Origin: Escherichia phage A7_1
Strand: one strand, 5' to 3'
Length of the DNA: 64,000 nt
Sequence record: OP795442
The notes under the pieces are model-generated. The model did no database searches. It was not told where the DNA came from and was given only the letters and a program-made list of their open reading frames with translations. How positions within the stretch are numbered: position 1 is the stretch's first letter; each line of letters opens with the position of its first letter. The translations under genes and the position numbers were made by a program. This document shows, in pieces, positions 561 through 51,136 of the stretch.

Positions 561-1124
561 ATGAGTCAAGATAAAGAGTTAGCCATTGCGATATCCGTAG
601 CTGCTTCTGCCCATGTTGACCAAGTAGATAAAGGGGGGAATATCTATATTCTTCATCCTTTGCAGGTGATGCAAACATTGCAGCAAAAGGGAAGGGGAGA
701 TTTAATGGCAGCAGGAGTTTTGCATGATGTGATTGAAGATACTGAAATCACTATGGAACACCTCTTTAAAAAGGGGATTTCAGAAAGAACCTTAGTGATT
801 GTCGATGCAGTGACAAAGAAACGTAAGCAATCTTCATCTGATTACCTAGAGGGGATTTTAGAGAGTGAGGGTGCTTGTCATGTTAAGCTTGCGGATCTTA
901 AACACAACTTAGATATTCTGCGAACTTGTAGCACCACAGAAAAAGACTTGCAACGGGTCAGGAAGTATGTAACAATGCACTTGTTGATTACGGAGATGGT
1001 TGATTGGTATGAAAGTATCGGAAGGTATCTCGATTATTGTGATTCTTTTGCCTATTCTAGCTATCTCGACGAACGTAAAGAATTTGTTCAGAAACTTATT
1101 AAAAAATGGAAGGAGTTTAAATGA
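561..1124 (+). CDS. HD-domain protein, small alarmone ((p)ppGpp) hydrolase-like
   Basis: 187 aa; SD AAGGAG; motifs ..YILHPLQV.. and ..VLHDVIEDT.. match SpoT/Mesh1 hydrolase HD signature. Confidence 0.65.
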   Translation: MSQDKELAIAISVAASAHVDQVDKGGNIYILHPLQVMQTLQQKGRGDLMAAGVLHDVIEDTEITMEHLFKKGISERTLVIVDAVTKKRKQSSSDYLEGILESEGACHVKLADLKHNLDILRTCSTTEKDLQRVRKYVTMHLLITEMVDWYESIGRYLDYCDSFAYSSYLDERKEFVQKLIKKWKEFK

Positions 1125-1724: not shown

Positions 1725-2954
1725 ATGCAAGCAACTTATCAACGTATGGACCAAACCATGTTCAAAAAACGTATCAGTGTTCGTGATATGGAATCACTGA
1801 TTCGCCTAGGAGCTTCCATCGGAAAGACCGTATTCTTTTTTGGTGGCGCTGGTCTTGGTAAGTCTGAAAAAGTAAAACAGATCGCTGATTCCATGTTCCC
1901 ACATCGTGTAGGTAATAACCTTTGTGATGTTCGTCTGTCGGATAAAGAGCCACAAGATATCGCAGGTATTCCGATTCCGATCTCTTATCCAGATCCGAAA
2001 ACTGGTAAAGAAGTCACTCGTACCGTATATGCAGTTCCAAACTTTTGGCCTACTGATCCTGATTGGGAAGGTATCGTGTTCTTGGATGAACTGCCAAATG
2101 CACCATTGGGCACTCAGCACTCTGCATATCAGGTTATTCTTGATCACGTTGCAGGTGAGCATAAGTTCCCGAAAGGTACTGTGTTTGTAGGTGCAGGTAA
2201 CCGTGATACTGATGGAGCAGGGACTACTTCTATGCCTGGCCCATTGGTTAACCGTATGATCATTGCAGAAGTTGATTATAATCTGGATGTGTGGATCGAA
2301 GACTATGCGATTCCGTTCCGTCTGCACCCGAACATTATTGGTTTCTTGAAGCAGTTTCCAGAGCATTTCTATACTGGTGACGTAGAAAACCGAAGTACTC
2401 CGGTTTATTCATCTCCTCGTCAATGGAAAACAGCATCTGACATTCTGTACAAGTATGATGCGGGTGAGATTAATGAATTTATCGCAGAGGTTGCTCTTGC
2501 AGGTACAGTTGGTGAAGGCCTGGAAGTACAGATCCTTGCTTATCATTTACGTGCTAAAGAACTTCCTCCGATTGAAGATATCTTTAGTGGTGCAGTTGAA
2601 GAACATAAACTTGATCGCAGTAAGAACGACCTTGTTTACGTCCTGGCACAAACTGGCCTTCGTCGCATGGAAGATGAGGTTATGGATAATGACATGACGG
2701 ATGATAAGTTCCTTGAACGTGCAGGTAACTTCCTTACGTTCATGTACAATAACTATTATGCAAACAACAAGGATACGATGATTGCTTTGATCTTGGGCGT
2801 GTTCCGTGGTCCAAACGATAAGCCATCTATCTTGACTGTTAACCCGAAACGTCAGAAAATGATTCCGCTTATGCGTAAGAGTTGCCCGACTGTTTCTGCC
2901 GCAGTTATGGAATACATGACTCGATATGGTCAACTGATTAAAGAATTCGAATAA
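1725..2954 (+). CDS. AAA+ ATPase, MoxR/CobS-like
   Basis: 409 aa; Walker A GGAGLGKS, Walker B IVFLDELPNA; SD AAGAGGAG. Confidence 0.8.
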   Translation: MQATYQRMDQTMFKKRISVRDMESLIRLGASIGKTVFFFGGAGLGKSEKVKQIADSMFPHRVGNNLCDVRLSDKEPQDIAGIPIPISYPDPKTGKEVTRTVYAVPNFWPTDPDWEGIVFLDELPNAPLGTQHSAYQVILDHVAGEHKFPKGTVFVGAGNRDTDGAGTTSMPGPLVNRMIIAEVDYNLDVWIEDYAIPFRLHPNIIGFLKQFPEHFYTGDVENRSTPVYSSPRQWKTASDILYKYDAGEINEFIAEVALAGTVGEGLEVQILAYHLRAKELPPIEDIFSGAVEEHKLDRSKNDLVYVLAQTGLRRMEDEVMDNDMTDDKFLERAGNFLTFMYNNYYANNKDTMIALILGVFRGPNDKPSILTVNPKRQKMIPLMRKSCPTVSAAVMEYMTRYGQLIKEFE

Positions 2955-2958
2955 TCTC

Positions 2959-2987
2959 TTGACAACGAAAAACAGTTAACTTAATAT
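2959..2987 (+). promoter_or_regulatory. promoter-like TTGACA-N17-TAATAT
   Basis: hexamers read directly; immediately followed by terminator hairpin. Confidence 0.3.
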
Positions 2988-2992
2988 AAGGG

Positions 2993-3017
2993 CATCTCGA
3001 AAGAGGTGTCCTTTTTT
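2993..3017 (+). terminator. rho-independent terminator (GAAA tetraloop hairpin + T6)
   Basis: CATCTC-GAAA-GAGGTG stem-loop followed by TCCTTTTTT. Confidence 0.55.
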
Positions 3018-3029
3018 AATTTGGAGAAA

Positions 3030-3524
3030 ATGATGGATTTCATAAAAGAAGGATTTTCTTTCGACCCCCTTGCAAAGTTTCTACTAAGGAGAAATGGAAG
3101 AGAAGTAGGGAATGTAGTAAAGAATCATAAAGGTTATGATAAAGACTATGTACGTGTAACATGGTCAAGGGAAAGGAAAAGAAAATCTGCGTATGCTCAC
3201 AGGATCATTTGGGAATTGCATTATGGCAAGATACCTGATGGTTATTGTATAGACCACATAAATGGAGATGGTTTGGATAACAGGATTGAAAACTTAAGAT
3301 TGGCAACTAAGAGTCAGAATGGTCAAAACAGGAAAAACAACAAGAATAAAAAGGATGGTCTTCCTAAAGGTGTAGTTATGAATCATGGAAAATACACAGG
3401 AAGGGTCTATGTAAATGGAAAAAGGTTACAGAAAATTAGTTCCGACCTTGACGAAATAGTCAATTGGTTGGAGAATAAACGTAAAGAAAATCACGGTGTG
3501 TTCATGAACAATGGAGAACAATAA
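3030..3524 (+). CDS. HNH homing endonuclease
   Basis: motif HRIIWELHYGKIP..IDHINGDGLDNRIENLR (HNH with AP2-like tail); ATG 3030 with GGAG SD; track start 3006 is GTG inside terminator. Confidence 0.75.
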   Translation: MMDFIKEGFSFDPLAKFLLRRNGREVGNVVKNHKGYDKDYVRVTWSRERKRKSAYAHRIIWELHYGKIPDGYCIDHINGDGLDNRIENLRLATKSQNGQNRKNNKNKKDGLPKGVVMNHGKYTGRVYVNGKRLQKISSDLDEIVNWLENKRKENHGVFMNNGEQ

Positions 3525-5062
3525 TGTCAAAAATTAGTCAAGAAGAAAAAGATATGATCGAAATGCAAGTCTTCGAAGCTGAACGTATTATTGAAGCTGC
3601 AAGTCTTCAACTTATGCGCTTCAAAGCGTTCTACGGGGTTATGCTTTCGTCTATGCCTGTTAAAAAGGCGACGGAGTGGTGTAGTACAATGGCGACTGAT
3701 GGACGTAACCTGTATTACCATCCAGAGTTCGTTGCAGGTATGACAGAAGAACGTAAAAAATTGGTACTTGAGCGACTTTCCAAATCTGAGAAAGATCCTA
3801 AAAAGCTGAAAGAGGGTATTGAGTTTATCAATGTCTTCTATCGTCGAAAGACTGCTCGTGAGCTTGCTCTTATTCTTGAGCACGAATGCGATCATGTGAT
3901 CTCTGATCACGCTTCTCGTGGTAAAGGGTTTAATCATGAGCTTTACAATATTGCAGCGGATCATCGTATCAATACAACGGCTGTGCTTATTCACCAGAAA
4001 GGGGATGAGCTAGGTAAAGCCTGGTTCCCTGCCGGAGAGAGAACGGTATTTGATAAAAATGCTGAATTTGGATTTATGGCCTGGTCTTACTGTGATTTCC
4101 GATTCAAAGATATGTATACTGAGCAGATCTATGAAATCCTGAATAAAGAGCAAGATGATAAAGAAAAATCCAAAGGGAAAGGTTCTGGTTCTGGAAGTGG
4201 AGAGGGTGATGGTGAAGAAGGTGGTCAAGGTCGTAAAGGTGTTGATCAACACATGGATCAGAATGGTGATCCAGAAGATTCAGAAGGTGATGATATCGAA
4301 GATGCACTGGGAATCGACCGTAAAGCGAAGCCTAAGCAAACAGCAGAGGAACGCCAGTATAACGATGGGGTTATGCGTCGAGCCATTGAGAATGCCGTAC
4401 AGGCAGCAGGAAGCGGTGCACCGGAAGATGCTCGTCGTTTTGTAGAAGCGGCGGGTAAACCAAAGATTAATTATCTTCGTTTGTTGCGTAAAACTATTGA
4501 ACGTCTGTTCAAAGATGATGTATCATATCGTCGTTTGTCACGCCGTAGTCACTCGTTAACTCGGACTCTTCGTGGCTCGGGTTACTTATCTGGACGACAG
4601 ACGATTGGTTTACCCTCAAAGAATAAACAGAAGACTATTCGTGCAGGTGTCTTCTTCGACGTATCTGGATCATTTAACGATGATCTGTTAAGACCAACAA
4701 TGCGTGAGATTCGTGGATTGTGTAATCTTTACGATGAGTTTGAAGTTACAATGGCTTGCTGGTCAACAAAGGTTGGTAACATTGAAACGTATACGAAGAA
4801 GAATGTGAATGAGATTGCTAACTACAAGATCAAGACCACATTTGGTACGGATGTTTCTTGTGTGTTCGAGGCATTAGATGAAATGAAAGACCCTATGGAT
4901 CAGATCATCATCTACACTGACGGTTACTTTGCTGATGTATCCCAAAAGAAAGATTGGGCCAAAAAGTATGGTAAGAATGTTCTTTGGATTATCCTGGGTC
5001 GTGGGTCTTCGTTCACCCCGCCTTTTGGCAAGGCAATTGATTTTGACAAGTATCTTAAATAA
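3524..5062 (+). CDS. von Willebrand factor A domain protein (CobT/ViaA-like partner of the ATPase)
   Basis: 512 aa; MIDAS-like FFDVSGSFND; acidic Gly/Ser-rich linker. Confidence 0.7.
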   Translation: MSKISQEEKDMIEMQVFEAERIIEAASLQLMRFKAFYGVMLSSMPVKKATEWCSTMATDGRNLYYHPEFVAGMTEERKKLVLERLSKSEKDPKKLKEGIEFINVFYRRKTARELALILEHECDHVISDHASRGKGFNHELYNIAADHRINTTAVLIHQKGDELGKAWFPAGERTVFDKNAEFGFMAWSYCDFRFKDMYTEQIYEILNKEQDDKEKSKGKGSGSGSGEGDGEEGGQGRKGVDQHMDQNGDPEDSEGDDIEDALGIDRKAKPKQTAEERQYNDGVMRRAIENAVQAAGSGAPEDARRFVEAAGKPKINYLRLLRKTIERLFKDDVSYRRLSRRSHSLTRTLRGSGYLSGRQTIGLPSKNKQKTIRAGVFFDVSGSFNDDLLRPTMREIRGLCNLYDEFEVTMACWSTKVGNIETYTKKNVNEIANYKIKTTFGTDVSCVFEALDEMKDPMDQIIIYTDGYFADVSQKKDWAKKYGKNVLWIILGRGSSFTPPFGKAIDFDKYLK

Positions 5063-40370: not shown

Positions 40371-40859
40371 TTATGGGCAACACCGTGGAGATCTTCCACA
40401 GAAGAATTGCCAATTGGTTTCTGAATCTTTGTGGTTTACAAAACCTATCCTTCCGCACCCTTTCCCACTACAAACCGCTTCACGAGGATGATAGTCTATA
40501 CTGCAAGAGTGGGGATGATCAAATGCCTCCTGTATTTCAACACAGAGTCTACTTAACCAAGCGAACATTTTTGGCATAGAAGCTTCAAGGAGTTTAAGTT
40601 CATCGACCGTAGGTTTGTCTTTCTCCATGAAGAAGTCATTTATCTCGGAAAACAAAATCACGTTTTGAACTATACCGCTGCTTACCTTGTAAGAGAACTC
40701 CTCAGTAAGTCTCACAGTAACTTCCTCTATCAATTCTTTTTCATTATCTTGATCTTTTGCTAATCTTTCTTCAATCCATCGGATAACGAAGAATCTTTCT
40801 CTCTGAACATCCATGTTCAAAGTATTGATTATTTTTTCATAGATTAGGTTTCCTTCCAT
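40371..40859 (-). CDS. hypothetical protein with C-terminal Cys cluster (PTVDELKLLEASMP motif)
   Basis: 162 aa ORF. Confidence 0.5.
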   Translation of the reverse strand: MEGNLIYEKIINTLNMDVQRERFFVIRWIEERLAKDQDNEKELIEEVTVRLTEEFSYKVSSGIVQNVILFSEINDFFMEKDKPTVDELKLLEASMPKMFAWLSRLCVEIQEAFDHPHSCSIDYHPREAVCSGKGCGRIGFVNHKDSETNWQFFCGRSPRCCP

Positions 40860-41971
40860 ACCTTGTCTTGTGCCTCCAGGATAAGTTTTTCAACAATCTT
40901 CAGATCTGTTTTCTTTGGTAAGCTCGATTGCTTATAAAGAACATCTGTGATCATTTTATCTTTTTCTTCAGCCCACTCAACAATTTCTTCATAGCGGTAT
41001 TCACCATTTCGGATTGCGAGGAGTTCTTCAGCGTCTGGTCGATTCACTAAAACTTTACCTTCTGTGAGGATTTCTTCACCCATCCGAAGAAGCCGGACCA
41101 AATGCATAGCATGTTTAGTGTCGTAACCGAACTTCTCTTCCAGTTCATGACGCTTCTCGTTACGATTCTTAACCCACTCCCAGTAGTTGTGGTGTTTCTC
41201 CTTGGCCCATTTATGATCGTCAGCACAATACTTAACAATCATCAGAGTCTTGCCTCTTTTAACTTCCTCTGGGATTTCTTCATAGTCTAGCTTACGGATA
41301 GAACCATCTTTATTAAACATTGGTTGAACATCTTCACTACGATCTTCTACAACACCGTAAATGTTACCACCGTAAGGAACCAAAGTACAGAAGCCTTCCA
41401 TGTTTTTAAATTTACGAACAAAGTCTTCGTACTTCAACTCACCTTCTCCGAGATAGCTCTGCACCAGACGGAAATAGTCAAATTGAGTTGGTGGCTCTTT
41501 TGGTTGCGGATTATTAATGTGTTTGTTGTGACCCTTGATCCGCTTTAACTGAGACATTGCATAACCACTGAAGCGAAATGCAACTTCACGAGACAGTAAG
41601 GAGTAGAAATGTTCTTTCATCTCTTTCCAAGCTTCGTGCTCGTACAATGTGGCTTTCGGATCAGTAAAACCCAGTTCAATGATATTTGGGTTCATCTTCG
41701 AAAACAGTTGAAGGAAAGTTCCCAATTCGTAGATCTTGGCATCCTCTTCACCAGGGATGTTTAATTCAGTAACCTCTTTGAATGGGGTACGAACCACATT
41801 TGGGGTTGCAACAAAAACCCCACGGATATCAATATCACTACCTTCGTTATTCGTACCATACGCATGAGATCCTGCCAGACTCAACATCAGTACCTTCGCT
41901 ACGTCTGGATGCTTTTCCATCTTCTCTACGATACTTTTTACCTTTCCAGCACTCACAACTGAATTTTCCAT
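40844..41971 (-). CDS. Pol-beta superfamily nucleotidyltransferase
   Basis: 375 aa; G-S-x9-D-I-D-I motif (LAGSHAYGTNNEGSDIDIRGVFV). Confidence 0.6.
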   Translation of the reverse strand: MENSVVSAGKVKSIVEKMEKHPDVAKVLMLSLAGSHAYGTNNEGSDIDIRGVFVATPNVVRTPFKEVTELNIPGEEDAKIYELGTFLQLFSKMNPNIIELGFTDPKATLYEHEAWKEMKEHFYSLLSREVAFRFSGYAMSQLKRIKGHNKHINNPQPKEPPTQFDYFRLVQSYLGEGELKYEDFVRKFKNMEGFCTLVPYGGNIYGVVEDRSEDVQPMFNKDGSIRKLDYEEIPEEVKRGKTLMIVKYCADDHKWAKEKHHNYWEWVKNRNEKRHELEEKFGYDTKHAMHLVRLLRMGEEILTEGKVLVNRPDAEELLAIRNGEYRYEEIVEWAEEKDKMITDVLYKQSSLPKKTDLKIVEKLILEAQDKVWKET

Positions 41972-42857: not shown

Positions 42858-43313
42858 TTACCCCTGTTTAAGCTTAAAAGATTTAAAGGCTTCGATAAAG
42901 TCCATTTCTTTTTGCGTGTATTTGTGGTCAATTGTATCAGCGAAAAGAGGGCAACGACCATCAACCAACTTCACATCCCACAGATGTTGAGGGAGAATAA
43001 ATGCAATGGCTGTAAGTGCACCATTCAAAGAATCATTCTCCTCGCAGAAAAATGCGTAAGGAATCTTCTCTATGTTTGGAGCTAAAAATCCTTCTGCAAA
43101 ATTAAGCATCTTAGATTGATAGCCTCCGTTCAACAAGATCATTGTTTGGTCTTTGCTTTGCCACTGATCTACAAGGTTGTATCTGTCATCATATCGATCG
43201 GCATAGGCAAAGCCATAATGACCTACAAGGTTTGCTGCTGCATGTGCTGCTTGGATACCTGCTTGGATTCCCATCATGTAGCTGTTTACCAATACGTACA
43301 TCCGAGTTTTCAA
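42858..43313 (-). CDS. hypothetical protein, possibly peptidyl-tRNA hydrolase (Pth2)-like
   Basis: 151 aa; N-terminal VLVNSYMMGIQAGIQAAHAA resembles Pth2 core; low-confidence function. Confidence 0.5.
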   Translation of the reverse strand: MKTRMYVLVNSYMMGIQAGIQAAHAAANLVGHYGFAYADRYDDRYNLVDQWQSKDQTMILLNGGYQSKMLNFAEGFLAPNIEKIPYAFFCEENDSLNGALTAIAFILPQHLWDVKLVDGRCPLFADTIDHKYTQKEMDFIEAFKSFKLKQG

Positions 43314-43630
43314 TTCTTACCTCCGAAAATTCTTTTTGCAAATTTTTCATTACCTAACGTCATGTTGTAGAAAACTATAATTGAATAGACAATCCACGCA
43401 AGGACATAAAATAAAATCAAGAAAGGCCAGCCCACAAACCAAAACACTGTCATTATTAACCAGCCCGTCATAAGGAGTTTATAATTAACATTCCCGTGAT
43501 TTAAAGGGTCAAGTAAGTTACTGTTCTCTGGCAGGGTGATACGAAACCCACCTTGACGAAGCTTGATCAAAAAGAACCAAGCAGCAGAACTTATAATGCA
43601 ACATAAAATATATATCAGTAATCCTGTCAT
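43310..43630 (-). CDS. hypothetical membrane protein, tandem paralogue A
   Basis: 106 aa; shares FLIKLRQ.GF..P and helix layout with 43627..43956. Confidence 0.55.
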   Translation of the reverse strand: MTGLLIYILCCIISSAAWFFLIKLRQGGFRITLPENSNLLDPLNHGNVNYKLLMTGWLIMTVFWFVGWPFLILFYVLAWIVYSIIVFYNMTLGNEKFAKRIFGGKN

Positions 43631-43956
43631 TTTTTAACTCCGAAGATCTTAGATAGTAATTTATCATTCCCGATAGTTACACCACAAAAACTTTTTACTC
43701 CGTATACTAGATACGACCCGATTGTAACACAGATAATGATCGGATAAACAAGATACCAAAAGAATGTTGCAAGTATCCACCCTGCCATCACCATACGTAA
43801 ATTTACATTTTCGTTATTCAGTGGCTCCAGGATATAAATATCCTCACAATCTTTTGGGAAGGGGATGTTAAAACCCTTCTGTCGTAATTTGATCAGTAAG
43901 AACCAAAGCGGGCAACTGATAAAACAACCGATCAAATAACCTTCAACCATTTTCAC
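43627..43956 (-). CDS. hypothetical membrane protein, tandem paralogue B
   Basis: 109 aa; paralogue of 43310..43630. Confidence 0.55.
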   Translation of the reverse strand: MKMVEGYLIGCFISCPLWFLLIKLRQKGFNIPFPKDCEDIYILEPLNNENVNLRMVMAGWILATFFWYLVYPIIICVTIGSYLVYGVKSFCGVTIGNDKLLSKIFGVKK

Positions 43957-45193
43957 TCTCCTTCAATTTGTCAAGATATTGTGTAACGTATCTTACTTTT
44001 ACATTTCGGATTCTATTCTTGATCTCTTCTGGACGTCCAGCAAATCTTTCAGAGATCTCTTTACTTTCTTTTGAGATTGCAACGCTGTTTTGAACAATCC
44101 CCGCCAGTGCTGAGAATAATACCAAAGGTTGAGTGTAGCTGTCAAACATTTTTTCAGGACCCCGACCACGAGCATCACAGATGCAAGCATCAATAAATTC
44201 AGAGAGGAATGCTTGGTCCTTTTCACCACGTAAGGCTACTAACAAGTCATAAACTTTCTTTGGCTTCATTTCTTTGATACGGTGAAGTCGTGTATGATGC
44301 TCAGTTACAGCTAAAGCCAACTTCTTCCAATTATTGGGGACACCAAAGCGATCACAAACTTGTTCAGTTAACTTGATACCATGTTCTTCGTGACCGTGCA
44401 GTTTACCCGTTACCCAATAAATACATTTACCTAAGTCGTGACACAGAACTGCCCACTTCACAGCTTCACTTGCACGAGTCGCCTGGGCATAATCCATGCA
44501 AAGTAAAGTGTGAACAAATGCATCACCTTCAGGATGGTGCTCCTTGGGTTGAACAACATCGTATAAATCCACAAGCTCAGGAAATTCCCCCAGTTGAGTC
44601 AACATACGGATCATTACCGAAGGTTTATTCATTTCTGACTGATCACTAAAGCATTTCTTAATCTCTGCAAATTTACGCTCTTTTGGTAATGCACTTAAAT
44701 CAACATCCTTGCACATTCCCCAAGTGTCAGGATCAATTGTAAACTCGCCTCCGTATCTGGCATGTAATCTGGCTAATCGATATACACGTAAAGGGTCTTC
44801 GATAAATGCCTTAATAGATACACAACGTAACCGACGAAGTTCAATATCAAGTGCACCACCGCAAGGGTCAATAATTTCACCCGTAGAAATATCCTTAGCG
44901 ATCGCATTAATGGTCAAATCTCTTCGCATCAGGTCTTGTTCGATTGTAACGTCTGGAGAGAACACAACTTCGAAGTCGTGATAACCAGGACCTGTTGATC
45001 TTTCTGTCCGAGCAAGAGCATACTCTTCCTTTGTCTCGGGGTGAAGGTACACAGGGAAAGCTGCACCAACCTTAGTAAATCCCTTCTCAATCATTTCTTC
45101 ATGGGTCGCTCCAACTACAACGTAGTCACGATCCTTGCTTTCAACACTCATTAGTTCATCGCGAACTGCACCACCTACCAAGTAAACTTTCAT
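43943..45193 (-). CDS. cca: CCA-adding tRNA nucleotidyltransferase with HD domain
   Basis: MKVYLVGGAVRD..DRD..YALARTER..RRDLTINA..DPLRV..CHDLGK closely follows E. coli Cca; ATG 45193 after AAGGA. Confidence 0.85.
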   Translation of the reverse strand: MKVYLVGGAVRDELMSVESKDRDYVVVGATHEEMIEKGFTKVGAAFPVYLHPETKEEYALARTERSTGPGYHDFEVVFSPDVTIEQDLMRRDLTINAIAKDISTGEIIDPCGGALDIELRRLRCVSIKAFIEDPLRVYRLARLHARYGGEFTIDPDTWGMCKDVDLSALPKERKFAEIKKCFSDQSEMNKPSVMIRMLTQLGEFPELVDLYDVVQPKEHHPEGDAFVHTLLCMDYAQATRASEAVKWAVLCHDLGKCIYWVTGKLHGHEEHGIKLTEQVCDRFGVPNNWKKLALAVTEHHTRLHRIKEMKPKKVYDLLVALRGEKDQAFLSEFIDACICDARGRGPEKMFDSYTQPLVLFSALAGIVQNSVAISKESKEISERFAGRPEEIKNRIRNVKVRYVTQYLDKLKESENG

Positions 45194-45231
45194 TCCTTCT
45201 TCTTCCATTCTTTCCAATTCTGCATGCCCGC

Positions 45232-45396
45232 TCATAGCCATCCCCTTTCTTTATACCCTTTTGTAAATCCTGATTCCCAATCTTGAAATTGCTCCGGCAT
45301 GGTGTTTGGATTATACGGGTTGTTTCTCTTGAACATCCCAAACTTGAATCCAGCGGCTCGGCCCTTCTCGTATGCTGAACTGCTTTTTCTTGTCAT
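45232..45396 (-). CDS. hypothetical small basic protein
   Basis: ATG 45396 after GAGGAG. Confidence 0.4.
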   Translation of the reverse strand: MTRKSSSAYEKGRAAGFKFGMFKRNNPYNPNTMPEQFQDWESGFTKGYKERGWL

Positions 45397-45722
45397 ACTC
45401 TTTCTCCTCTTAAATTTAAAGACCAATCTTTTATTTCTTCTTTCCAGTTTGTATTTCTCTTAATGTCTTGCTTTTGACCGCGAAGATAGTTAATGATCTC
45501 AAGCGGGTCTTGCTTAACAAAAGAAATATTGTCGATCGGGCACTCAACTAACTTAAGCATCCTTTCAAAACGATTATACTCATCTTCCGACTTTGGTGCA
45601 ACAGGAATAACATCATAATCTTCAAGATTATCGAGAGTTTCAAGAGTCACCTTCATCTCGTAGCCTTCTAATTTCTTTGTCTTAATACCAAATACTCTTC
45701 GAAAGTAAATGTAATATTTCAT
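45393..45722 (-). CDS. hypothetical protein
   Basis: 109 aa, SD AGGAGAA. Confidence 0.5.
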   Translation of the reverse strand: MKYYIYFRRVFGIKTKKLEGYEMKVTLETLDNLEDYDVIPVAPKSEDEYNRFERMLKLVECPIDNISFVKQDPLEIINYLRGQKQDIKRNTNWKEEIKDWSLNLRGERV

Positions 45723-45747
45723 CGTATTCTCCTAGTTGATGACTATC

Positions 45748-45775
45748 ATTATACACATCCCCGAATTCAAGTCAA
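45748..45775 (-). promoter_or_regulatory. sigma70-like promoter TTGACT-N16-TATAAT (minus strand)
   Basis: read on reverse complement. Confidence 0.5.
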
Positions 45776-45801
45776 CAAAAAAGGCCACCCGAAGGTGACC
45801 T
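45773..45801 (-). terminator. rho-independent terminator
   Basis: minus strand AGGTCACC-TTCG-GGTGGCCT + TTTTTT. Confidence 0.55.
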
Positions 45802-45807
45802 TTAAAT

Positions 45808-46317
45808 TTAAGGGTGAATCCAGTAAAAAGGTTTTGTTAAACCAAGCTTACCTTTCGGGTCCCAAATGAAGTAGGCATACGCCGCACCATCTGTTTTCCC
45901 ATCCTCAGTAAAAGAGGGTCGCTTGGATAGAGTAACCAAATGATCAACAGGATATTCCTTCCAGAACTCCACACGTTTGGTACTCTCAAGGAAACCTAAA
46001 CGAAGCAGCATTATCACCACATCAGCATCCTTGTGAGCCTTCTCTACAAACTCTTGAGCTAAATTATAAGGTGGGTTAGTTAACACACAATCTACCTTAT
46101 TGTATTTAGTTGCAAGATAATCAACACCTTCTTGAATCTCTCCCCAAGCTGAACCAATTGGCATTTCATTATAAAAACGTCCAGAGGCTCTGCAAGGTTC
46201 CAGATAAGTCCAATCCTGACGGATTGGAACTAAATTCAAGAAAGCATCTACTGCCCATTTCGGAGTTTCATAGCGATCATTTTCACGGCGTTCTGCTTTA
46301 GGTTTCAATGCTGCCAC
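45808..46317 (-). CDS. DNA N6-adenine methyltransferase (small orphan MTase)
   Basis: RYETPKWAVDAF, motif I-like EPCRASGRF, motif IV DCVLTNPPY. Confidence 0.7.
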   Translation of the reverse strand: MAALKPKAERRENDRYETPKWAVDAFLNLVPIRQDWTYLEPCRASGRFYNEMPIGSAWGEIQEGVDYLATKYNKVDCVLTNPPYNLAQEFVEKAHKDADVVIMLLRLGFLESTKRVEFWKEYPVDHLVTLSKRPSFTEDGKTDGAAYAYFIWDPKGKLGLTKPFYWIHP

Positions 46318-46319
46318 TC

Positions 46320-47165
46320 TTATTTGCCCCCTTCTTTTGCCGCAGTGATGATCTGCTCAATCAATTCATCACGATAATAAACATACTGTTCAACACCGAA
46401 ACATTCTGCAATCTCGTCTAACTCTTCGAGGTTGTATTCGTCAAAGTCTCGCGGGTTAAGAGTGAAGATGTTGAATTTTTTGGCGTAGCCTTCGTCAAGG
46501 ACGATTTCAAATTCTCCTTCTCCGATTTCCTTCTCATCATCAACATTACTCGATTCGATTGGCTCTTCAACCTTAATCCCCCCTGTATTTTGTTGATCGG
46601 CTTCCATTTGCTTTTTAATTGCTTCATCTTCAGCGGTCAGACGGGCTTGCATCTGAGAGGAAGTAAAGTAAATTTCGCCAGCACGATCAAACAGTTCAAC
46701 GAGTTCATCTTCTGTCATAACACCCTTGTACAGATCGTAGTATTTCTCTTTGAACAGGTCTTTGTAGAAATCGCTACGTTTAAATACCAGTGCCGAGTCA
46801 CCGCCCATACTCATCTGAACGTTGTGGAACATATAATGAGAACCTGGACGACAAATTCGAACATGACCGGATAAGAAGATCATTGTTGCAGCACTTGCCA
46901 CTTCACCAATACCGTGTGTTACAACAGTCGCCTTTGTTTCAGAGATCGCTGTCATGTACATATCGGCGATATCACAATAACCACCACAAGAAGTAATGTA
47001 TAGATTTACAATATCACCTTCGGGCGCTGAACGAATCAGGTCAACAGCCTCGATATGTGCTTCAGGTGAATTGTGCAGGTCCGTAACATAAATACGCCAA
47101 TCGTTAGAAGTTACTGGAGACACCCAAATGTTTTTTGCCGGACCATTCATTACGATTTCTTCCAT
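46320..47165 (-). CDS. ClpP-like serine protease (S14) with acidic C-terminal extension
   Basis: ITSCGGYCD..VTHGIGEVASAATMIFLSG..GSHYMFH resembles ClpP catalytic core. Confidence 0.55.
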   Translation of the reverse strand: MEEIVMNGPAKNIWVSPVTSNDWRIYVTDLHNSPEAHIEAVDLIRSAPEGDIVNLYITSCGGYCDIADMYMTAISETKATVVTHGIGEVASAATMIFLSGHVRICRPGSHYMFHNVQMSMGGDSALVFKRSDFYKDLFKEKYYDLYKGVMTEDELVELFDRAGEIYFTSSQMQARLTAEDEAIKKQMEADQQNTGGIKVEEPIESSNVDDEKEIGEGEFEIVLDEGYAKKFNIFTLNPRDFDEYNLEELDEIAECFGVEQYVYYRDELIEQIITAAKEGGK

Positions 47166-47176
47166 ATTAATTCCCC

Positions 47177-47647
47177 TTAGCTAATTAAAGTACGGATGCG
47201 GGTAGCGTTTTGCAGAACCCAGTCTACTACGACAGAATGATCAGAGTCAACAATTACTTCATGATGACGTTTGAACATATCAAGAATCTTTGCTGCTTCG
47301 GCAGTGTAAAGTGCCGCACGATCTAAAAAGATAATCTGCTCTTTAAGTTCTTCCGTGATTGGACATAACTTACTTGGGACCTCAATGGCTGATAAATGCT
47401 CTATCAACTCCGCTCTGGTAGAGAACATAATATCAACTTCCTGATCGATACTAAGAGAGCCTAAGAATAAGCGAGAAAACCATCCACGATACTCATCGTT
47501 GTTTTTACGCAAAGTCTTAATTCCAAATCTTAACTCTTCGAACAGGGCTGTTGCAATTTCTTCAATACGATCAGGAACAATAGCCCCACAATTTTTCAAT
47601 TCCATCAGTTTACGATGATCAACTGTTGCGTACATACCCTTATCCAT
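47177..47647 (-). CDS. hypothetical protein
   Basis: 156 aa ORF. Confidence 0.55.
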   Translation of the reverse strand: MDKGMYATVDHRKLMELKNCGAIVPDRIEEIATALFEELRFGIKTLRKNNDEYRGWFSRLFLGSLSIDQEVDIMFSTRAELIEHLSAIEVPSKLCPITEELKEQIIFLDRAALYTAEAAKILDMFKRHHEVIVDSDHSVVVDWVLQNATRIRTLIS

Positions 47648-47655
47648 ATCACCCC

Positions 47656-47973
47656 TTAAATTCCGATTAAATATTTAAACTTCCCGTCGTTCTCTGCGAT
47701 CTTGTGGATTACATAGAACCAATTTTCAATTCCGTCTTCATCTTCCTCTTTCACACGATCACCAGTTTTCAACTCAACCTCGGAAACGTACTCCTTACTT
47801 TCAAGGAAATACTTCCACTGAACCATGTCTTTAAAATTACAGATTAGTTTATTTTTGCCATCAGTCGTCCAAAGGTCCTGATTGACCCACATACCAACAA
47901 CGAAATTCTTTTCTTTCTTAGGACGACCAAGTGCATAAGTGTTGTTTAACATCTTTGCTTTATCTAAGACCAC
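47656..47973 (-). CDS. hypothetical protein
   Basis: 105 aa ORF. Confidence 0.5.
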   Translation of the reverse strand: MVLDKAKMLNNTYALGRPKKEKNFVVGMWVNQDLWTTDGKNKLICNFKDMVQWKYFLESKEYVSEVELKTGDRVKEEDEDGIENWFYVIHKIAENDGKFKYLIGI

Positions 47974-48616
47974 GTTTTGACTCCAAGTTAACTAAGAAAC
48001 TCTCAAGCACTGCGATGTTGTCTTCTTTCCAAAGATTAAGTGTTCTTACACCATTCTTCTTTGCCAGATTGACTGCTGTTGCAGTGCCGCCTTTAGGATT
48101 ACCCGTCTTTGTTTCCTTTGCGTAGTATATCACAAATTTACTTTGCATCAAGTAGGCATTTGAAAGATTTTTACCAAAAATTTGGTGTACGTTTCTTTCG
48201 TGTAATTTCCTTGCCCCTTGACTCAACTTGTCCCATCCACCATGAACTTCCTTTATCCATTCCCATCGCATTTCTGTATGTTCTGGAAATTCTTTATCAA
48301 TCGTGTTCAGGGAGATATTATACAGATCTTTAAGTCCTTGTCCACCTTTAAAGTTGTCCCAAGGAACATATATCTCTGCAAGTTTGCTCGGTGATTGAGT
48401 CATATTGCAATCTTCATGAAACTTCTGCATACCTCTTTGGAAAGCTGCATCTGCACCATCTGCACCGCCAGATCGTAATGTATATCCGACCCTTGCTAAT
48501 CTCCAACCCGCATCTTCCATAATTTTTAATACTTCTTCAGGGGCCTCCCTTGAACCTATTCCTGTATAAGCTGGCACTTTAACCTCCTTCATCTTCAGTT
48601 GACCAGTACCCATTAA
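47960..48616 (-). CDS. DprA/Smf-like (SLOG superfamily) Rossmann-fold protein
   Basis: YTGIGSRE..GYTLRSGGADGADAAFQRG resembles DprA GxAxGxD core; start uncertain (track start overlaps nrdG by 113 nt). Confidence 0.45.
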   Translation of the reverse strand, partial: LMGTGQLKMKEVKVPAYTGIGSREAPEEVLKIMEDAGWRLARVGYTLRSGGADGADAAFQRGMQKFHEDCNMTQSPSKLAEIYVPWDNFKGGQGLKDLYNISLNTIDKEFPEHTEMRWEWIKEVHGGWDKLSQGARKLHERNVHQIFGKNLSNAYLMQSKFVIYYAKETKTGNPKGGTATAVNLAKKNGVRTLNLWKEDNIAVLESFLVNLESKRGLR

Positions 48617-49061
48617 CTTTTTTCCAAAGTCTTTGGTTATCTGATCCCCTGAATCTTTTAGTTGTAGGTTTGTTTTCATCATACTTGCCATCCATGATTA
48701 AGTCAACGTATTTCTTTATTTCCTCATCTAAGTCTTGAAAAAGATACCCTGTCCACACCATGATATCTTTACTCTCACCAAAGCACGACTTTACTTCCTT
48801 GATAATTCTTTTTACAACATCAATATTCTCATGGTCAAGAGGTTCTCCACCCATAATTGACAATCCACTGATAAAATTTCGAGAAAGATCTTTTTTCAAA
48901 CTCTCCATATCTTCATCTGTGAATTCTTTCCCATACCTATATGACCAAGCCTTTTGGTTAAAACAACCCTTACACTTATGACTGCATCCACTAACCCAGA
49001 GAGAGGTTCTTACCCCCTCTCCATTGATGAAGTCTGTGCTTTCATATCCGCAAATGTTCAA
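48579..49061 (-). CDS. nrdG: anaerobic ribonucleotide reductase activating protein (radical SAM)
   Basis: C-x3-C-x2-C (GCSHKCKGC); adjacent to nrdD. Confidence 0.8.
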   Translation of the reverse strand: MNICGYESTDFINGEGVRTSLWVSGCSHKCKGCFNQKAWSYRYGKEFTDEDMESLKKDLSRNFISGLSIMGGEPLDHENIDVVKRIIKEVKSCFGESKDIMVWTGYLFQDLDEEIKKYVDLIMDGKYDENKPTTKRFRGSDNQRLWKKVNGYWSTEDEGG

Positions 49062-51136
49062 ACGTGTTTTTCCCTTTGTAAGACCTCCTGCATCTTACCT
49101 TTGTTATAAGGTCTTGCATTTGGTGCAGATAAATAACCAGAAACCCTTCGGATTACTGAAATTGTTCCCTCTTCTTTGTTCCCGCAACAAGGGCATTCAA
49201 AACCTTTTGCTGTTGCATGAAACTCACCACTAAAGTTACACTTAAAGCACTGGTCCACAGGTTGATTGACACCAAAGTAAGGTATCGTATCATAACCATA
49301 GTCGATCAATGTTTCAAGCGCCTTAATGTTATTTTTCAAGTTTGGCGTTTCAACGTACCCGATATTACCACCAGAACTTATTGTTGCAAAACCTGACTCG
49401 TACTTCCATTTGCTGAAAGGATCTGAATGTTCCCAAACAGGTGCATGAAAGGAGTTTGTAAGGTAATCCCGATCAAGCACCTCTGGATATTTTTCCTTAA
49501 GCTTAGTAGCGAAACGATAACATAAACTCTCAGCAGGTGTTCCGTAGAGGCTAAAGGAAATACGTGAGCGCTCTTTAAATTCATCACATTTTATTTTCAT
49601 GTGATTGAGGATCATTACCGCCAAACCCTTATCCTTTTTCCCAACAATAATCTCAACAGTTTCAGATAATCCCACATACCCGACACTGATTGAGGCATAC
49701 CCATCATAGAATAACTTACCTATCTTTTCGTTAGCTCCCAGTCTTGCCAAAGCTCCTTCCATAAAAAGCGTGGGGTTTTGAGAAGCTTTTACATTTTTAA
49801 GTCGGTTGACACGAACCATATGCGATTCATATGCGTTTTCCATGTGCTGGTCAAGAAGTGCATAAAAATCACCACCTTTTGCTTTGTACTCTGCTGCAAT
49901 CAGCGGTAAATTTATAGAGACAACACCTAAATTGAATCGACCATCATACTTCTCTCCATGTTCTGTCGTAAATTTGGAAAGGAAGCTCCTACAACCCATA
50001 CTTGTAACTTTCCCATCTGAAGATCCAGTAACCTCTTTATTTAATGGCACAGAGATGAAGTCAGGATAGATCCTTTCAACACAGCACTGCATTGCCATTT
50101 GTTTAAGGTTATAATTAACATCACCAGGTTTCAGGTTTACACCATCTTGCAAAAAGAAGACAACCTTCGGAAAAACTGGAGTTACCTTATCCTTGCCAAG
50201 CCCCTCAGTATGGACCTTTAGATAGTTTTTGGTAATCATTCTACCAAACTCTGAAGTTTCAAGACCCATACTGATCGTAATGAAAGGCGATTGACCGTTA
50301 ACACTCATTAAAGTATTAACCTGATAAACCAGTGTCTGCATTGCATCATATACATCACGATCTGTCATTTCCATTGCTAAAGATTCATTAGGTTTTCCGA
50401 TCTTTTCTAAAAACTCAATATTCTTTTTGTGGCTCATCTCAACATATGTTTTCAAACCCTCATCGATATGAGCACATGTTTGTCCTCCGTATTGACTGGA
50501 TGCCACAGCCTGAATGATTTGAGTCAGAACTGTTGTTGCAACACCAATCGACTTAGGTTTTTCGATCTTCGCATTTCCAATCTTAAAACCATTTTCAAGC
50601 ATGTCCCGATAGTTAACAAGACAACAGTTAGTTAATGGACTAACCAAATAATCCAAGTCGTGAATGTGACCATAACCTTCATTGTGCCAAGCAGCGAGGT
50701 CTTTTGGCAAGATCTGGTTAATACTGACATGCTTGCTTAAAATACCTGCCAGCAAGTCCCGATGAGTATTTACCAAATTGCTAGGTTTGTTTGCATTCTC
50801 ACGAGTAAATTCTTCAGCCGTCTGATCCAAAAATCCGCTAATATCTGAATAAAGTTTACCTTTGCCTTCACGAACTGAATCCCGATCATGACGGTATTCA
50901 ATATAGCATCTGGCAGCATCTTGAAGATTTTTCTGACTCATTAAGGTATTCTCAACAACCTTATGAATCTCTTCTACAGATATACGATCTTTATCTTCAA
51001 TCTGACTAACGACTTCAGTAATGAGTTTATCAACATCGGCTTTAGTGCCTGCGGATAAAAGAGCGCCCCGAAGGGCTGCTCCGATCTTATCCGTGCACAA
51101 GGTTTCTTCACGCCCGTCACGTTTTGCAATAATCAA
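49058..51136 (-). CDS. nrdD: anaerobic ribonucleoside-triphosphate reductase
   Basis: 692 aa; C-terminal glycyl-radical motif RVSGYL and CPCCG zinc ribbon. Confidence 0.9.
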   Translation of the reverse strand: MIIAKRDGREETLCTDKIGAALRGALLSAGTKADVDKLITEVVSQIEDKDRISVEEIHKVVENTLMSQKNLQDAARCYIEYRHDRDSVREGKGKLYSDISGFLDQTAEEFTRENANKPSNLVNTHRDLLAGILSKHVSINQILPKDLAAWHNEGYGHIHDLDYLVSPLTNCCLVNYRDMLENGFKIGNAKIEKPKSIGVATTVLTQIIQAVASSQYGGQTCAHIDEGLKTYVEMSHKKNIEFLEKIGKPNESLAMEMTDRDVYDAMQTLVYQVNTLMSVNGQSPFITISMGLETSEFGRMITKNYLKVHTEGLGKDKVTPVFPKVVFFLQDGVNLKPGDVNYNLKQMAMQCCVERIYPDFISVPLNKEVTGSSDGKVTSMGCRSFLSKFTTEHGEKYDGRFNLGVVSINLPLIAAEYKAKGGDFYALLDQHMENAYESHMVRVNRLKNVKASQNPTLFMEGALARLGANEKIGKLFYDGYASISVGYVGLSETVEIIVGKKDKGLAVMILNHMKIKCDEFKERSRISFSLYGTPAESLCYRFATKLKEKYPEVLDRDYLTNSFHAPVWEHSDPFSKWKYESGFATISSGGNIGYVETPNLKNNIKALETLIDYGYDTIPYFGVNQPVDQCFKCNFSGEFHATAKGFECPCCGNKEEGTISVIRRVSGYLSAPNARPYNKGKMQEVLQREKHV

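Follow-up and report, generated by a model that had tools for sequence, protein, structure and literature searches.

In the 64,000 nucleotides of Escherichia phage A7_1 analysed here (sequence record OP795442; hereafter the window), five closely packed genes follow a run of replication and nucleotide-metabolism genes. Three of them encode a small methyltransferase (MTase), a ClpP-like serine peptidase and a DprA-type SLOG protein, and the other two encode small proteins, p156 and p105. This arrangement raises the question of whether the five genes act together, and in particular whether the peptidase is the prohead protease of the phage. The explanation that we favour, and hold with moderate confidence, is that the locus is the end of an operon, that the three named proteins would be mechanistically independent accessory proteins accompanied by two lineage-specific proteins of unassigned function, and that their adjacency would derive from a gene order common to the whole subfamily; the activities of the proteins are predictions from sequence.

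Genome setting and operon layout

The region is most likely the 3' end of a middle-gene DNA/nucleotide-metabolism operon of a Vequintavirinae-like (rV5-like) E. coli myophage. Positions 45000–49200 share 98% identity with the Escherichia phages A73 and W70 and 94–95% with LTH01, UPEC06 and A5-4, all classed as Vequintavirinae. Because of this 94–98% identity to five deposited phage genomes, and of the numbers of homologues reported below, we consider the genes to be real and not chance open reading frames (ORFs).

Composition skew indicates minus-strand transcription of the window beyond about 25 kb. This stretch encodes polymerase/exonuclease, ThyX, class Ia ribonucleotide reductase, glutaredoxin, endolysin, PhoH, NrdD and NrdG. 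Past NrdG come the five genes of interest, all of them found as ORFs on the minus strand, and after these lie the genes of a CCA-adding enzyme and of an RlaP-type nucleotidyltransferase; with such neighbours on both sides, the non-structural context that an earlier note on this DNA had proposed is borne out. The gene order is PhoH-NrdD-NrdG-SLOG-p105-p156-ClpP-MTase-terminator, and the intergenic gaps from nrdD through NrdG, SLOG, p105, p156 and ClpP to the MTase gene measure -4, 1, -14, 8, 11 and 2 nt, the next gene lying 85 nt from the MTase gene.

Specifically, an intrinsic-terminator-like hairpin (45780..45803, minus strand), consisting of a GC-rich 10-bp stem and then TTTTGTT, begins 5 nt past the MTase stop. 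It is followed by a near-consensus sigma-70-like promoter (45748..45775, minus strand; TTGACT-16 nt-TATAAT, 11/12 matches), which serves the next transcription unit, including small ORFs and the CCA-adding enzyme. Therefore, one transcription unit closes with the five genes, and the RNA-repair genes are part of the unit after it. The strong terminator hairpin directly abuts the promoter, so that 45748–45803 on the minus strand appears as a clean operon boundary.

The ClpP-like protein and its C-terminal extension

The ClpP-family serine peptidase (46320..47165, minus strand) has 281 amino acids (aa), of which residues 1–185 make up the core, and by its sequence it is a true ClpP homologue. The Pfam CLP_protease model matches it above the gathering score (E 3.5e-8; 34.0 bits against a cut-off of 20.2), and a profile of 51 members of its family hits ClpP sequences of solved structure, 109 in all (best E 2.7e-19), covering profile positions 24–175 with the handle and the third catalytic position included. 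Both results uphold the ClpP fold assigned in the earlier note. A match to phrog_5410 was obtained with E 1.4e-77, and the best PHROGs (E 1e-77 and 1e-35) are non-structural families labelled 'ATP-dependent protease'.

An exhaustive HMMER search, with representative clusters taken at 50% identity, gave a family of at least 1,827 clusters, and tblastn located homologues in 1,214 phage records. Catalytic residues were counted in the best 150 of the 1,827 clusters, aligned with E. coli ClpP. Ser91 (nt 46893-46895) and His114 (nt 46824-46826) are conserved in 150/150 and align with Ser111 and His136 of the E. coli enzyme, and the third position of the triad, Glu164 (nt 46674-46676) in the phage protein, is acidic in 139/150 (Asp in 88, Glu in 51).

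The long acidic C-terminal tail that had been noticed before was found again as residues 186–281, a stretch of 96 residues with 27 Asp/Glu against 8 Lys/Arg and an isoelectric point (pI) of ~4.05. It starts with an acidic low-complexity linker (residues 186–225; 46491..46610, minus strand; 14 Asp/Glu against 2 Lys/Arg), which differs in sequence and length between homologues. This is followed by a conserved C-terminal domain of ~55 aa (residues 226–281; 46323..46490, minus strand) carrying the pattern F-x-I-x-L-D-x-G-Y ... L-x-x-x-D-F-x-E-Y-N-x-x-E-L-x-E-I. When the C-terminal segment was searched with phmmer, the same domain was detected in the tails of ~10 distant (metagenomic) homologues (E 1e-15 to 2e-4), and it could also be aligned in GAP31, ABPH49 and ICP1 gp211. 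A weak match to Pfam Rho_N (HeH; E 0.025) hints at its fold, which may thus be HeH/Rho_N-like.

The protein would most likely be an active Ser-His-Glu peptidase with a ClpP-type barrel assembly, the barrel being predicted because the handle region aligns with ClpP. It would be made alongside the replication genes rather than the capsid genes, and its substrates would be host or phage cytoplasmic proteins, not the prohead, with the acidic linker and the C-terminal domain possibly serving as a tether or as a module recognizing substrates or partners. In the literature we found nothing relevant on a characterised phage-encoded non-capsid ClpP and no published function for this family. PDB entry 9uxt ('Clp protease'), which a single-sequence search had suggested as a possible phage relative, fell outside the top 60 with the family profile and was set aside.

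Position of the ClpP-like gene relative to the capsid genes

The ClpP-like protein is not the capsid protease. Neither the large ORFs of the window that were scanned nor the annotated matching stretches of relatives contained a recognisable capsid gene. In UPEC06 the capsid module lies at 55–61 kb and contains terminase, portal (Portal_Mu), a 189-aa Peptidase_S78_2 protease, a 364-aa protein, a decoration protein and the major capsid protein. The Peptidase_S78_2 prohead protease (E 3e-15; 58.0 kb) is encoded between the portal and the major capsid protein, and the ClpP-like gene of the same phage is found at 20.9 kb, ~37 kb from it. The same capsid module has been described for SSBI34 and CR9 (PMC8879037). 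The earlier note had gone no further than calling the protein not obviously a prohead protease, and had reserved the case of a capsid module adjoining its gene. In the relative the prohead protease of that module is encoded ~37 kb away instead, and the statement can now be made more firmly.

Beyond the Vequintavirinae-like phages, we opened the genomic contexts of T5-like phages, ICP1, Otagovirus and the phages Vibrio D17, K575 and F95. In every ClpP-like context opened, the neighbours are nucleotide-metabolism, replication or lysis genes, and the gene never adjoins capsid genes. The orders observed are dNMP (deoxynucleoside monophosphate) kinase-Clp-holin-endolysin in T5-like phages, dNMP kinase-x-Clp-endolysin in Vibrio D17, dihydrofolate reductase-Clp-repair protein in the KVP40-like K575, lysozyme-PhoH-x-x-ClpP in ICP1, PhoH-x-ClpP in Vibrio F95 and PhoH-ClpP in Otagovirus phiPsa315.

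Two recurrences can be read from these contexts. ClpP-like genes adjoin phoH, or lie at most three genes from it, in Vequintavirinae, ICP1, Vibrio F95 and Otagovirus phiPsa315; in T5-like phages and Vibrio D17 they stand beside lysis genes.

The DprA-type SLOG protein

The gene next to nrdG encodes a stand-alone DprA-type SLOG (Rossmann-like) protein of 205 aa with a pI of 9.0 (47960..48577, minus strand, GTG start). Its longest ORF, 47960-48691, overlaps nrdG by 113 nt. The start is almost certainly the GTG at 48577, because a Shine-Dalgarno sequence, GAAGGAGG, lies 5 nt upstream, the codon comes 1 nt after the nrdG stop and the same start is annotated in A73. All five ORFs listed earlier, including the two without an assigned function, are present, but the end coordinate then given for the five-gene stretch, 48616, falls within nrdG, 39 nt upstream of the GTG, and is here corrected to 48577.

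The SLOG/Rossmann-like DprA fold, as previously proposed, was confirmed, though the curated models stay below threshold (DNA_processg_A E 5.7e-4, LDcluster4 0.05, TIGR00732 0.002), with 19.6 against 29.6 bits for PF02481 and 17.3 against 191 for TIGR00732. PHROG 768 ('DprA-like') matches the protein with E 1e-63, and 30/52 family members match Pfam DNA_processg_A (PF02481), weakly (best E 6.8e-6). The BFVD viral fold library returned only other uncharacterised or 'DprA-like' phage proteins. A PADLOC search gave only weak motif-level matches, to MTase_II and to PsyrA (E 3.9e-5 over SGGAxGxD), and no defence or anti-defence assignment was made.

The protein carries the motifs G-I-G-S-R9, R34-S-G-G-A-D-G-A-D42, E-I-Y-V-P71-W72, H111, L124-H-E-R127-N-V-H-Q131 and G162-G-T-A-T166. 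In an alignment of the family, which counts 650 homologues, G-x-G-S-R is near-invariant and R-S-G-x-A-x-G-x-D invariant, while P71-W72, H111, L124-H-x-R127-N-x-x-Q131-x-x-G and G-G-T-x-T are conserved. Homologues occur in 1,511 phage records, comprising Pakpunavirus, RB49-like and other Straboviridae, N4-like, Aeromonas and Vibrio phages, and their contexts are mutually unrelated, the gene being flanked, for example, by hoc and gp24 in a Krischvirus and found in PaP1 near phosphoribosyl pyrophosphate (PRPP) synthetase and nicotinamide phosphoribosyltransferase genes.

In H. pylori DprA, residues R52 and R143, and in ShosA their equivalents R139 and R234, are needed for binding single-stranded DNA (ssDNA; PMC12961424). 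The phage family keeps both a near-invariant arginine of the GSR motif, R9, and an invariant arginine of the RN motif, R127. The SLOG protein is therefore predicted, from these motifs, to be a single-domain relative of the DprA Rossmann fold that would bind ssDNA through its GSR and RN arginines, with a possible role in phage recombination or in replication-fork transactions. Between ssDNA binding and the binding or turnover of a small molecule, the former seems somewhat more likely.

The N6-adenine methyltransferase

The last gene of the operon encodes an MTase-like protein of 169 aa (45808..46317, minus strand), a minimal gamma-type N6-adenine methyltransferase catalytic domain in which no target-recognition domain was found. 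The class I Rossmann-like MTase fold was confirmed, the AlphaFold2 model having a pLDDT of 92.6. The sequence contains D14-x-Y16-x-T18-P19, E40-P-C-R-A-S-G-R-F48 (motif I), W58-G-E60-I, D66-Y-L and T80-N-P-P-Y84 (motif IV, nt 46066-46077). The family comprises 170 homologues of ~160–230 aa and is represented in 565 phage records. Its alignment shows an invariant T-P near the N-terminus, then E-P-C and a glycine-containing loop (family consensus EPCxGDG), conserved G64, D66 and D76, an invariant T-N-P-P-(Y/F) and a conserved R-P-S-F; N81, P82 and P83 of motif IV are invariant in 47 sequences.

Curated models match the NPPY region only (Pfam Dam E 0.046, Eco57I 0.09, TIGR01712 0.036), and the protein scores under every curated cut-off (Dam 13.8 against 28.1 bits, Eco57I 13.3 against 25.3, TIGR01712 13.6 against 97). 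PHROG 799 ('DNA methyltransferase') matches it with E 4e-63. When family members were scanned singly, 26/47 matched EcoRI_methylase and 20/47 Dam, weakly (best E 5.8e-5), and a PDB profile search with the family returned DpnA, a type I M subunit and TaqI (E 0.004–0.06). Since no restriction gene adjoins it among the annotated neighbours, the enzyme is an orphan, and the assignment made in the earlier note, an orphan N6-adenine MTase of 169 aa, is thus supported by fold, motifs and the Pfam matches of the family.

On this basis, the enzyme is expected to transfer a methyl group from S-adenosylmethionine to the N6 of adenine in DNA. DNA is the more likely substrate, the fold alone being compatible with rRNA or tRNA as well. 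Its specificity would be short or relaxed, because there is no recognition domain.

The earlier note had further suggested a likely anti-restriction function, and this part of the claim does not agree with published plating data, in which Vequintavirinae and related phages show exceptional sensitivity to restriction-modification (RM) systems (PMC8594841). Two phages of this group in the BASEL collection, JohannBauhin (60.6% identity) and PaulScherrer (43.7%), carry homologues of the MTase. That relatives, some of them with the gene, are sensitive to restriction argues against a general anti-restriction role; broad protection is unlikely, and protection against some other restriction specificity is possible.

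As regards the composition of the window, GATC is not under-represented (375 sites; observed/expected ratio, O/E, 1.00). The depleted palindromes are CTAG (O/E 0.49), CGCG (0.55), CCGG (0.58) and CATG (0.71), and CCATGG, CACGTG, CGTACG and CTCGAG are absent, with ~5–6 of each expected. An attempt to guess the methylation motif from these palindrome frequencies was abandoned as not diagnostic.

The small proteins and the conserved gene order

The conserved protein p156 (47177..47647, minus strand; 156 aa, phrog_7224) occurs only in Vequintavirinae-like phages, its 36 homologous clusters all coming from Vequintavirinae-like contigs, and its sequence matches a database protein of Escherichia phage A7_1 at 100% identity. 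It has two invariant motifs, H11-R-K-L-M-E-L-K-N-C-G and L-D-M-F-K-R-H-H-E-V-I-V-D. Residues ~79–128 resemble the HRDC-like region of the archaeal RNA polymerase subunit Rpo4/F (E 0.004 with NCBIfam, E 0.23 with a PDB profile); these matches, weak and repeated, are too little for a claim of kinship with Rpo4/F. The second conserved small protein, p105 (47656..47973, minus strand; 105 aa, phrog_5456), is annotated in UPEC06 as 98 aa from an internal ATG and has positional homologues in GAP31 and ABPH49 at 31–34% identity.

In both GAP31 (Seunavirus) and ABPH49 the order SLOG-small-~160 aa-ClpP-MTase after PhoH is kept at ~30–35% protein identity, the ClpP-like proteins of the two phages being 33% and 32% identical to that of the window (tblastn). 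In the lineage of the window, an insertion of nrdD and nrdG separates phoH from the SLOG gene. The SLOG, MTase and ClpP-like families differ in taxon spectrum and context, and each occurs without the others in unrelated phages. ICP1 gp209, encoded between PhoH and ClpP, was considered as a homologue of the SLOG protein or of p156 and proved unrelated to both.

The separate occurrence of the three families, together with the unrelated intervening genes of ICP1, leads us to favour synteny over a functional module, and a joint mechanism of the three families is unlikely. The association of genes implied by the earlier note is thus best read as a gene order conserved across the subfamily, and does not extend to the unrelated phages in which the families occur apart.

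Alternative explanations

The ClpP-like protein could still be a virion-assembly protease encoded outside the capsid module, acting as a second prohead protease or in the processing of internal or ejection proteins, with the tail providing scaffold-like targeting to the capsid. Its secondary PHROG matches are indeed to head-maturation families (phrog_1684, E 2.5e-17; phrog_94, E 7e-12), Clp_rel_HeadMat (NF045542) tops its NCBIfam matches (E 1.5e-7), and the build of the protein, with an acidic, helical tail C-terminal to the protease, is similar to known protease-scaffold fusions such as the lambda C/Nu3-type arrangements. However, with Clp_rel_HeadMat the score of 31.5 bits falls short of the cut-off (120), the non-structural families given above are the best PHROGs, a near-identical relative already carries an S78 prohead protease in its capsid module, and the gene sits within a replication/nucleotide-metabolism operon, its homologues in seven other lineages never adjoining capsid genes; we therefore regard this role as very unlikely. 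A different view of the same protease is that the five genes, or at least p105-p156-ClpP(-PhoH), constitute one module, a capsid-independent proteolytic system degrading host defence or regulatory proteins, in which the small proteins would be adaptors or regulators and energy would come from the neighbouring PhoH ATPase or from host ClpX/ClpA. The gene order held at ~30–35% identity in GAP31 and ABPH49, the overlapping or tightly spaced genes, consistent with translational coupling, the closeness of ClpP-like genes to phoH in four lineages and the restriction of p156 to phages with the ClpP subtype of the window all fit such a module. Yet the ClpP-like genes of T5-like phages, Vibrio D17 and K575 have no adjoining PhoH, p156, p105, SLOG or MTase gene, gp209 of ICP1 occupies the equivalent position and is related to neither SLOG nor p156, PhoH is not an AAA+ unfoldase, and whole-genome synteny in the subfamily accounts for the order without any shared function, which makes the module quite improbable in our judgement.

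Alternatives were also weighed for the two remaining proteins. The SLOG protein may bind or hydrolyse a nucleotide-derived small molecule, either sequestering or degrading an immune signal in the style of anti-Thoeris or anti-CBASS proteins (CBASS, cyclic-oligonucleotide-based antiphage signalling system), or acting as a nucleotide N-glycosidase tied to the adjacent nucleotide-metabolism genes. A pocket is suggested by the invariant, family-specific polar and aromatic residues W72, H111, H125, N128 and Q131, the gene comes directly after nrdD and nrdG, and in PaP1 it lies a few genes downstream of those for PRPP synthetase and nicotinamide phosphoribosyltransferase. We nevertheless rate this activity as unlikely, given that DprA is the closest fold and the only Pfam family matched by most members, that the protein is basic, that the catalytic LOG motif PGGxGTxxE is not kept (P-K-G-G-T-A-T-A-V-N, with Asn for Glu), and that ShosA, a characterised single-Rossmann DprA-like protein, binds ssDNA and RecA (PMC12961424). 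For the MTase, the substrate might instead be RNA, that is the N6 of adenine in rRNA or tRNA, within a phage set for tRNA and RNA maintenance. The lack of a DNA target-recognition domain, the CCA-adding enzyme and RlaP-type RNA-repair nucleotidyltransferase encoded just downstream, and the failure of relatives in the phage group, some with MTase homologues, to escape RM systems would suit an RNA substrate. Against it, the family matches the DNA MTase models of Pfam reported above and essentially no RNA MTase models, DpnA and the type I M subunit rank first in the PDB profile search, the order and wording of the motifs in the family alignment mirror M.TaqI, and the RNA-related genes lie past a terminator in the next transcription unit; we give the RNA substrate little credence.

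Our preferred explanation, an operon end with three independent accessory proteins kept together by synteny, has in turn several points weighing against it. The five-gene order persists to ~33% protein identity, which would also be expected of a functional module. The SLOG protein superposes on DprA over ~135–145 of 204 residues only. As a single domain of 205 aa, it lacks the SAM-like N-terminal and winged-helix (DML1) C-terminal domains that flank the fold in DprA, E. coli Smf being 374 aa long, and neither the hhalign comparison of the family with Smf nor a pairwise local alignment is credible beyond the first 40 columns. We infer the equivalence of R127 with DprA R143 from motif and topology, not from structural superposition, and the invariant residues from W72 to Q131 named above look more like a small-molecule pocket. 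The ClpP-like protein, for its part, scores far below the NCBIfam cut-offs for ClpP orthology (29.7 against 251, 28.9 against 228, 24 against 249 and 13.4 against 308.6 bits), the third residue of its triad is Glu and not Asp, and no phage ClpX-like unfoldase was seen among the window proteins scanned with Pfam (ten large upstream ORFs).

Other features of the window

Further features were noted away from the five genes. The transcription unit downstream contains the RlaP-type 'RNA repair pathway' nucleotidyltransferase (E 6.5e-19) and the CCA-adding tRNA nucleotidyltransferase (40844-41971 and 43943-45241, respectively, both on the minus strand). These genes are present although no tRNA genes were found in the 64-kb window; Rfam families were likewise absent between 40 and 53 kb. 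At 43310-43956 (minus strand) there are two tandem paralogous small hydrophobic proteins of 106 and 109 aa, with a common motif, F-L-I-K-L-R-Q-(G/K)-G-F, and similar C-termini, which are probably membrane proteins arisen by local duplication. At 30571-32953 (minus strand) two neighbouring, overlapping ORFs of ~410 aa encode RCC1-like repeat (beta-propeller) domains (Pfam WD40_RLD E 3.7e-10 and 2.5e-23, both under the curated cut-off), an odd content for a phage early region.

On the plus strand, the stretch 1725-5062 contains a 409-aa ORF without a Pfam match, for which relatives annotate an 'ATPase' in the same stretch, and a 512-aa protein with a DUF2201_N putative metallopeptidase domain (E 6.5e-25) and a VWA-like DUF2201 domain (E 7.9e-8). 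Between the two lies an HNH_3 homing-endonuclease ORF (3006-3524; E 3.6e-23), and the arrangement looks like a MoxR/VWA-type pair split by a mobile HNH gene. A 187-aa protein encoded at 561-1124 (plus strand) has an HD_4 domain (RelA/SpoT-type hydrolase-like; E 3e-7), and relatives annotate 'GTP pyrophosphokinase' and PRPP synthetase within the matching 25-kb stretch, a hint that the phage may manipulate (p)ppGpp or nucleotide pools.

Wider implications

The MTase, the ClpP-like protein and the SLOG protein are members of large phage families already so labelled in public annotation, and none of the three is a new variant, if one leaves aside the C-terminal domain of the ClpP-like protein, which is of modest interest. 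What is clarified here is that the protease is not the capsid protease, and that the label 'DprA-like' refers to a fold and not to a demonstrated recombination function. The observation of wider reach concerns the ClpP-like family, which, with its catalytic residues intact and in non-structural settings, recurs in many unrelated virulent phages, including T5-like, ICP1-like, rV5-like and marine Vibrio phages, beside genes for nucleotide metabolism, PhoH and lysis.

A bolder proposal, very doubtful at present, is that the ClpP-like protein, possibly with p156, p105 and/or PhoH, acts in the replication phase as a capsid-independent protease that reshapes the host proteome or destroys defence proteins, its C-terminal domain serving as a targeting module; it could also provide the activity sensed by the CBASS CD-NTases (cGAS/DncV-like nucleotidyltransferases) in Vequintavirinae. 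According to a recent preprint, phage protease activity is sensed by CBASS, which protects against the Vequintavirinae Bas48-59 with a loop specificity differing from that for T4 gp21; the protease sensed in Vequintavirinae is not named there (10.64898/2026.03.04.709575). Were the ClpP-like protein to degrade host or defence proteins, or to trigger CBASS, this would represent a general and overlooked layer of phage-host conflict, and homologues are available in genetically tractable model phages, namely T5-like phages, ICP1 and the BASEL Vequintavirinae.

Comparison with known systems

With M.TaqI and the gamma-class N6-adenine DNA MTases, the phage MTase has in common the linear order TP, E-P-C-x-x-x-G-x-F (motif I), an acidic residue, D-(Y/F)-L and N-P-P-Y. 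In contrast to M.TaqI, which has a C-terminal target-recognition domain, the phage protein has none, and the segment from motif I to motif IV is very short. It is similar in size, at ~170 aa, to the small phage Dam-type MTases (Pfam PF05869, TIGR01712).

The SLOG protein shares with DprA/Smf and ShosA the G-S-R after the first strand, S-G-x-A-x-G-x-D, the R-N helix before strand 4 and the G-G-(S/T)-x-x-T loop. In addition, it is basic, like the ssDNA-binding DprA and ShosA, the ShosTA antitoxin (PMC12961424). It differs from DprA over residues ~72–146, where it has its own invariant W72, H111, H125 and Q131, and by a Phe where the G-I-D-x-x-A-H motif of DprA has its His.

As for the ClpP-like protein, it is homologous to bacterial ClpP (MEROPS S14) over the whole ClpP core including the handle, at ~20% identity to E. 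coli ClpP, and keeps the Ser/His pair with an acidic third residue at the position of the ClpP Asp; the 96-residue acidic extension with its conserved domain is absent from bacterial ClpP. The ClpP-like proteins of T5-like and Otagovirus phages are short versions without this extension. Compared with the ClpP-related head-maturation proteases (NF045542; PHROGs 1684 and 94), it has the same fold and Ser-His chemistry, weak profile matches and a C-terminal tail after the core. It departs from them in that its gene lies outside the capsid module, its score is below the family cut-off and its phage lineage has an S78-type prohead protease of its own. Finally, the non-capsid setting is common to all lineages examined in which phage genes are annotated as 'ATP-dependent Clp protease' or 'Clp-like protease' (T5-like phages, ICP1 gp211, PVP-SE1/GAP31), and it is with these genes that the ClpP-like gene of the window agrees.

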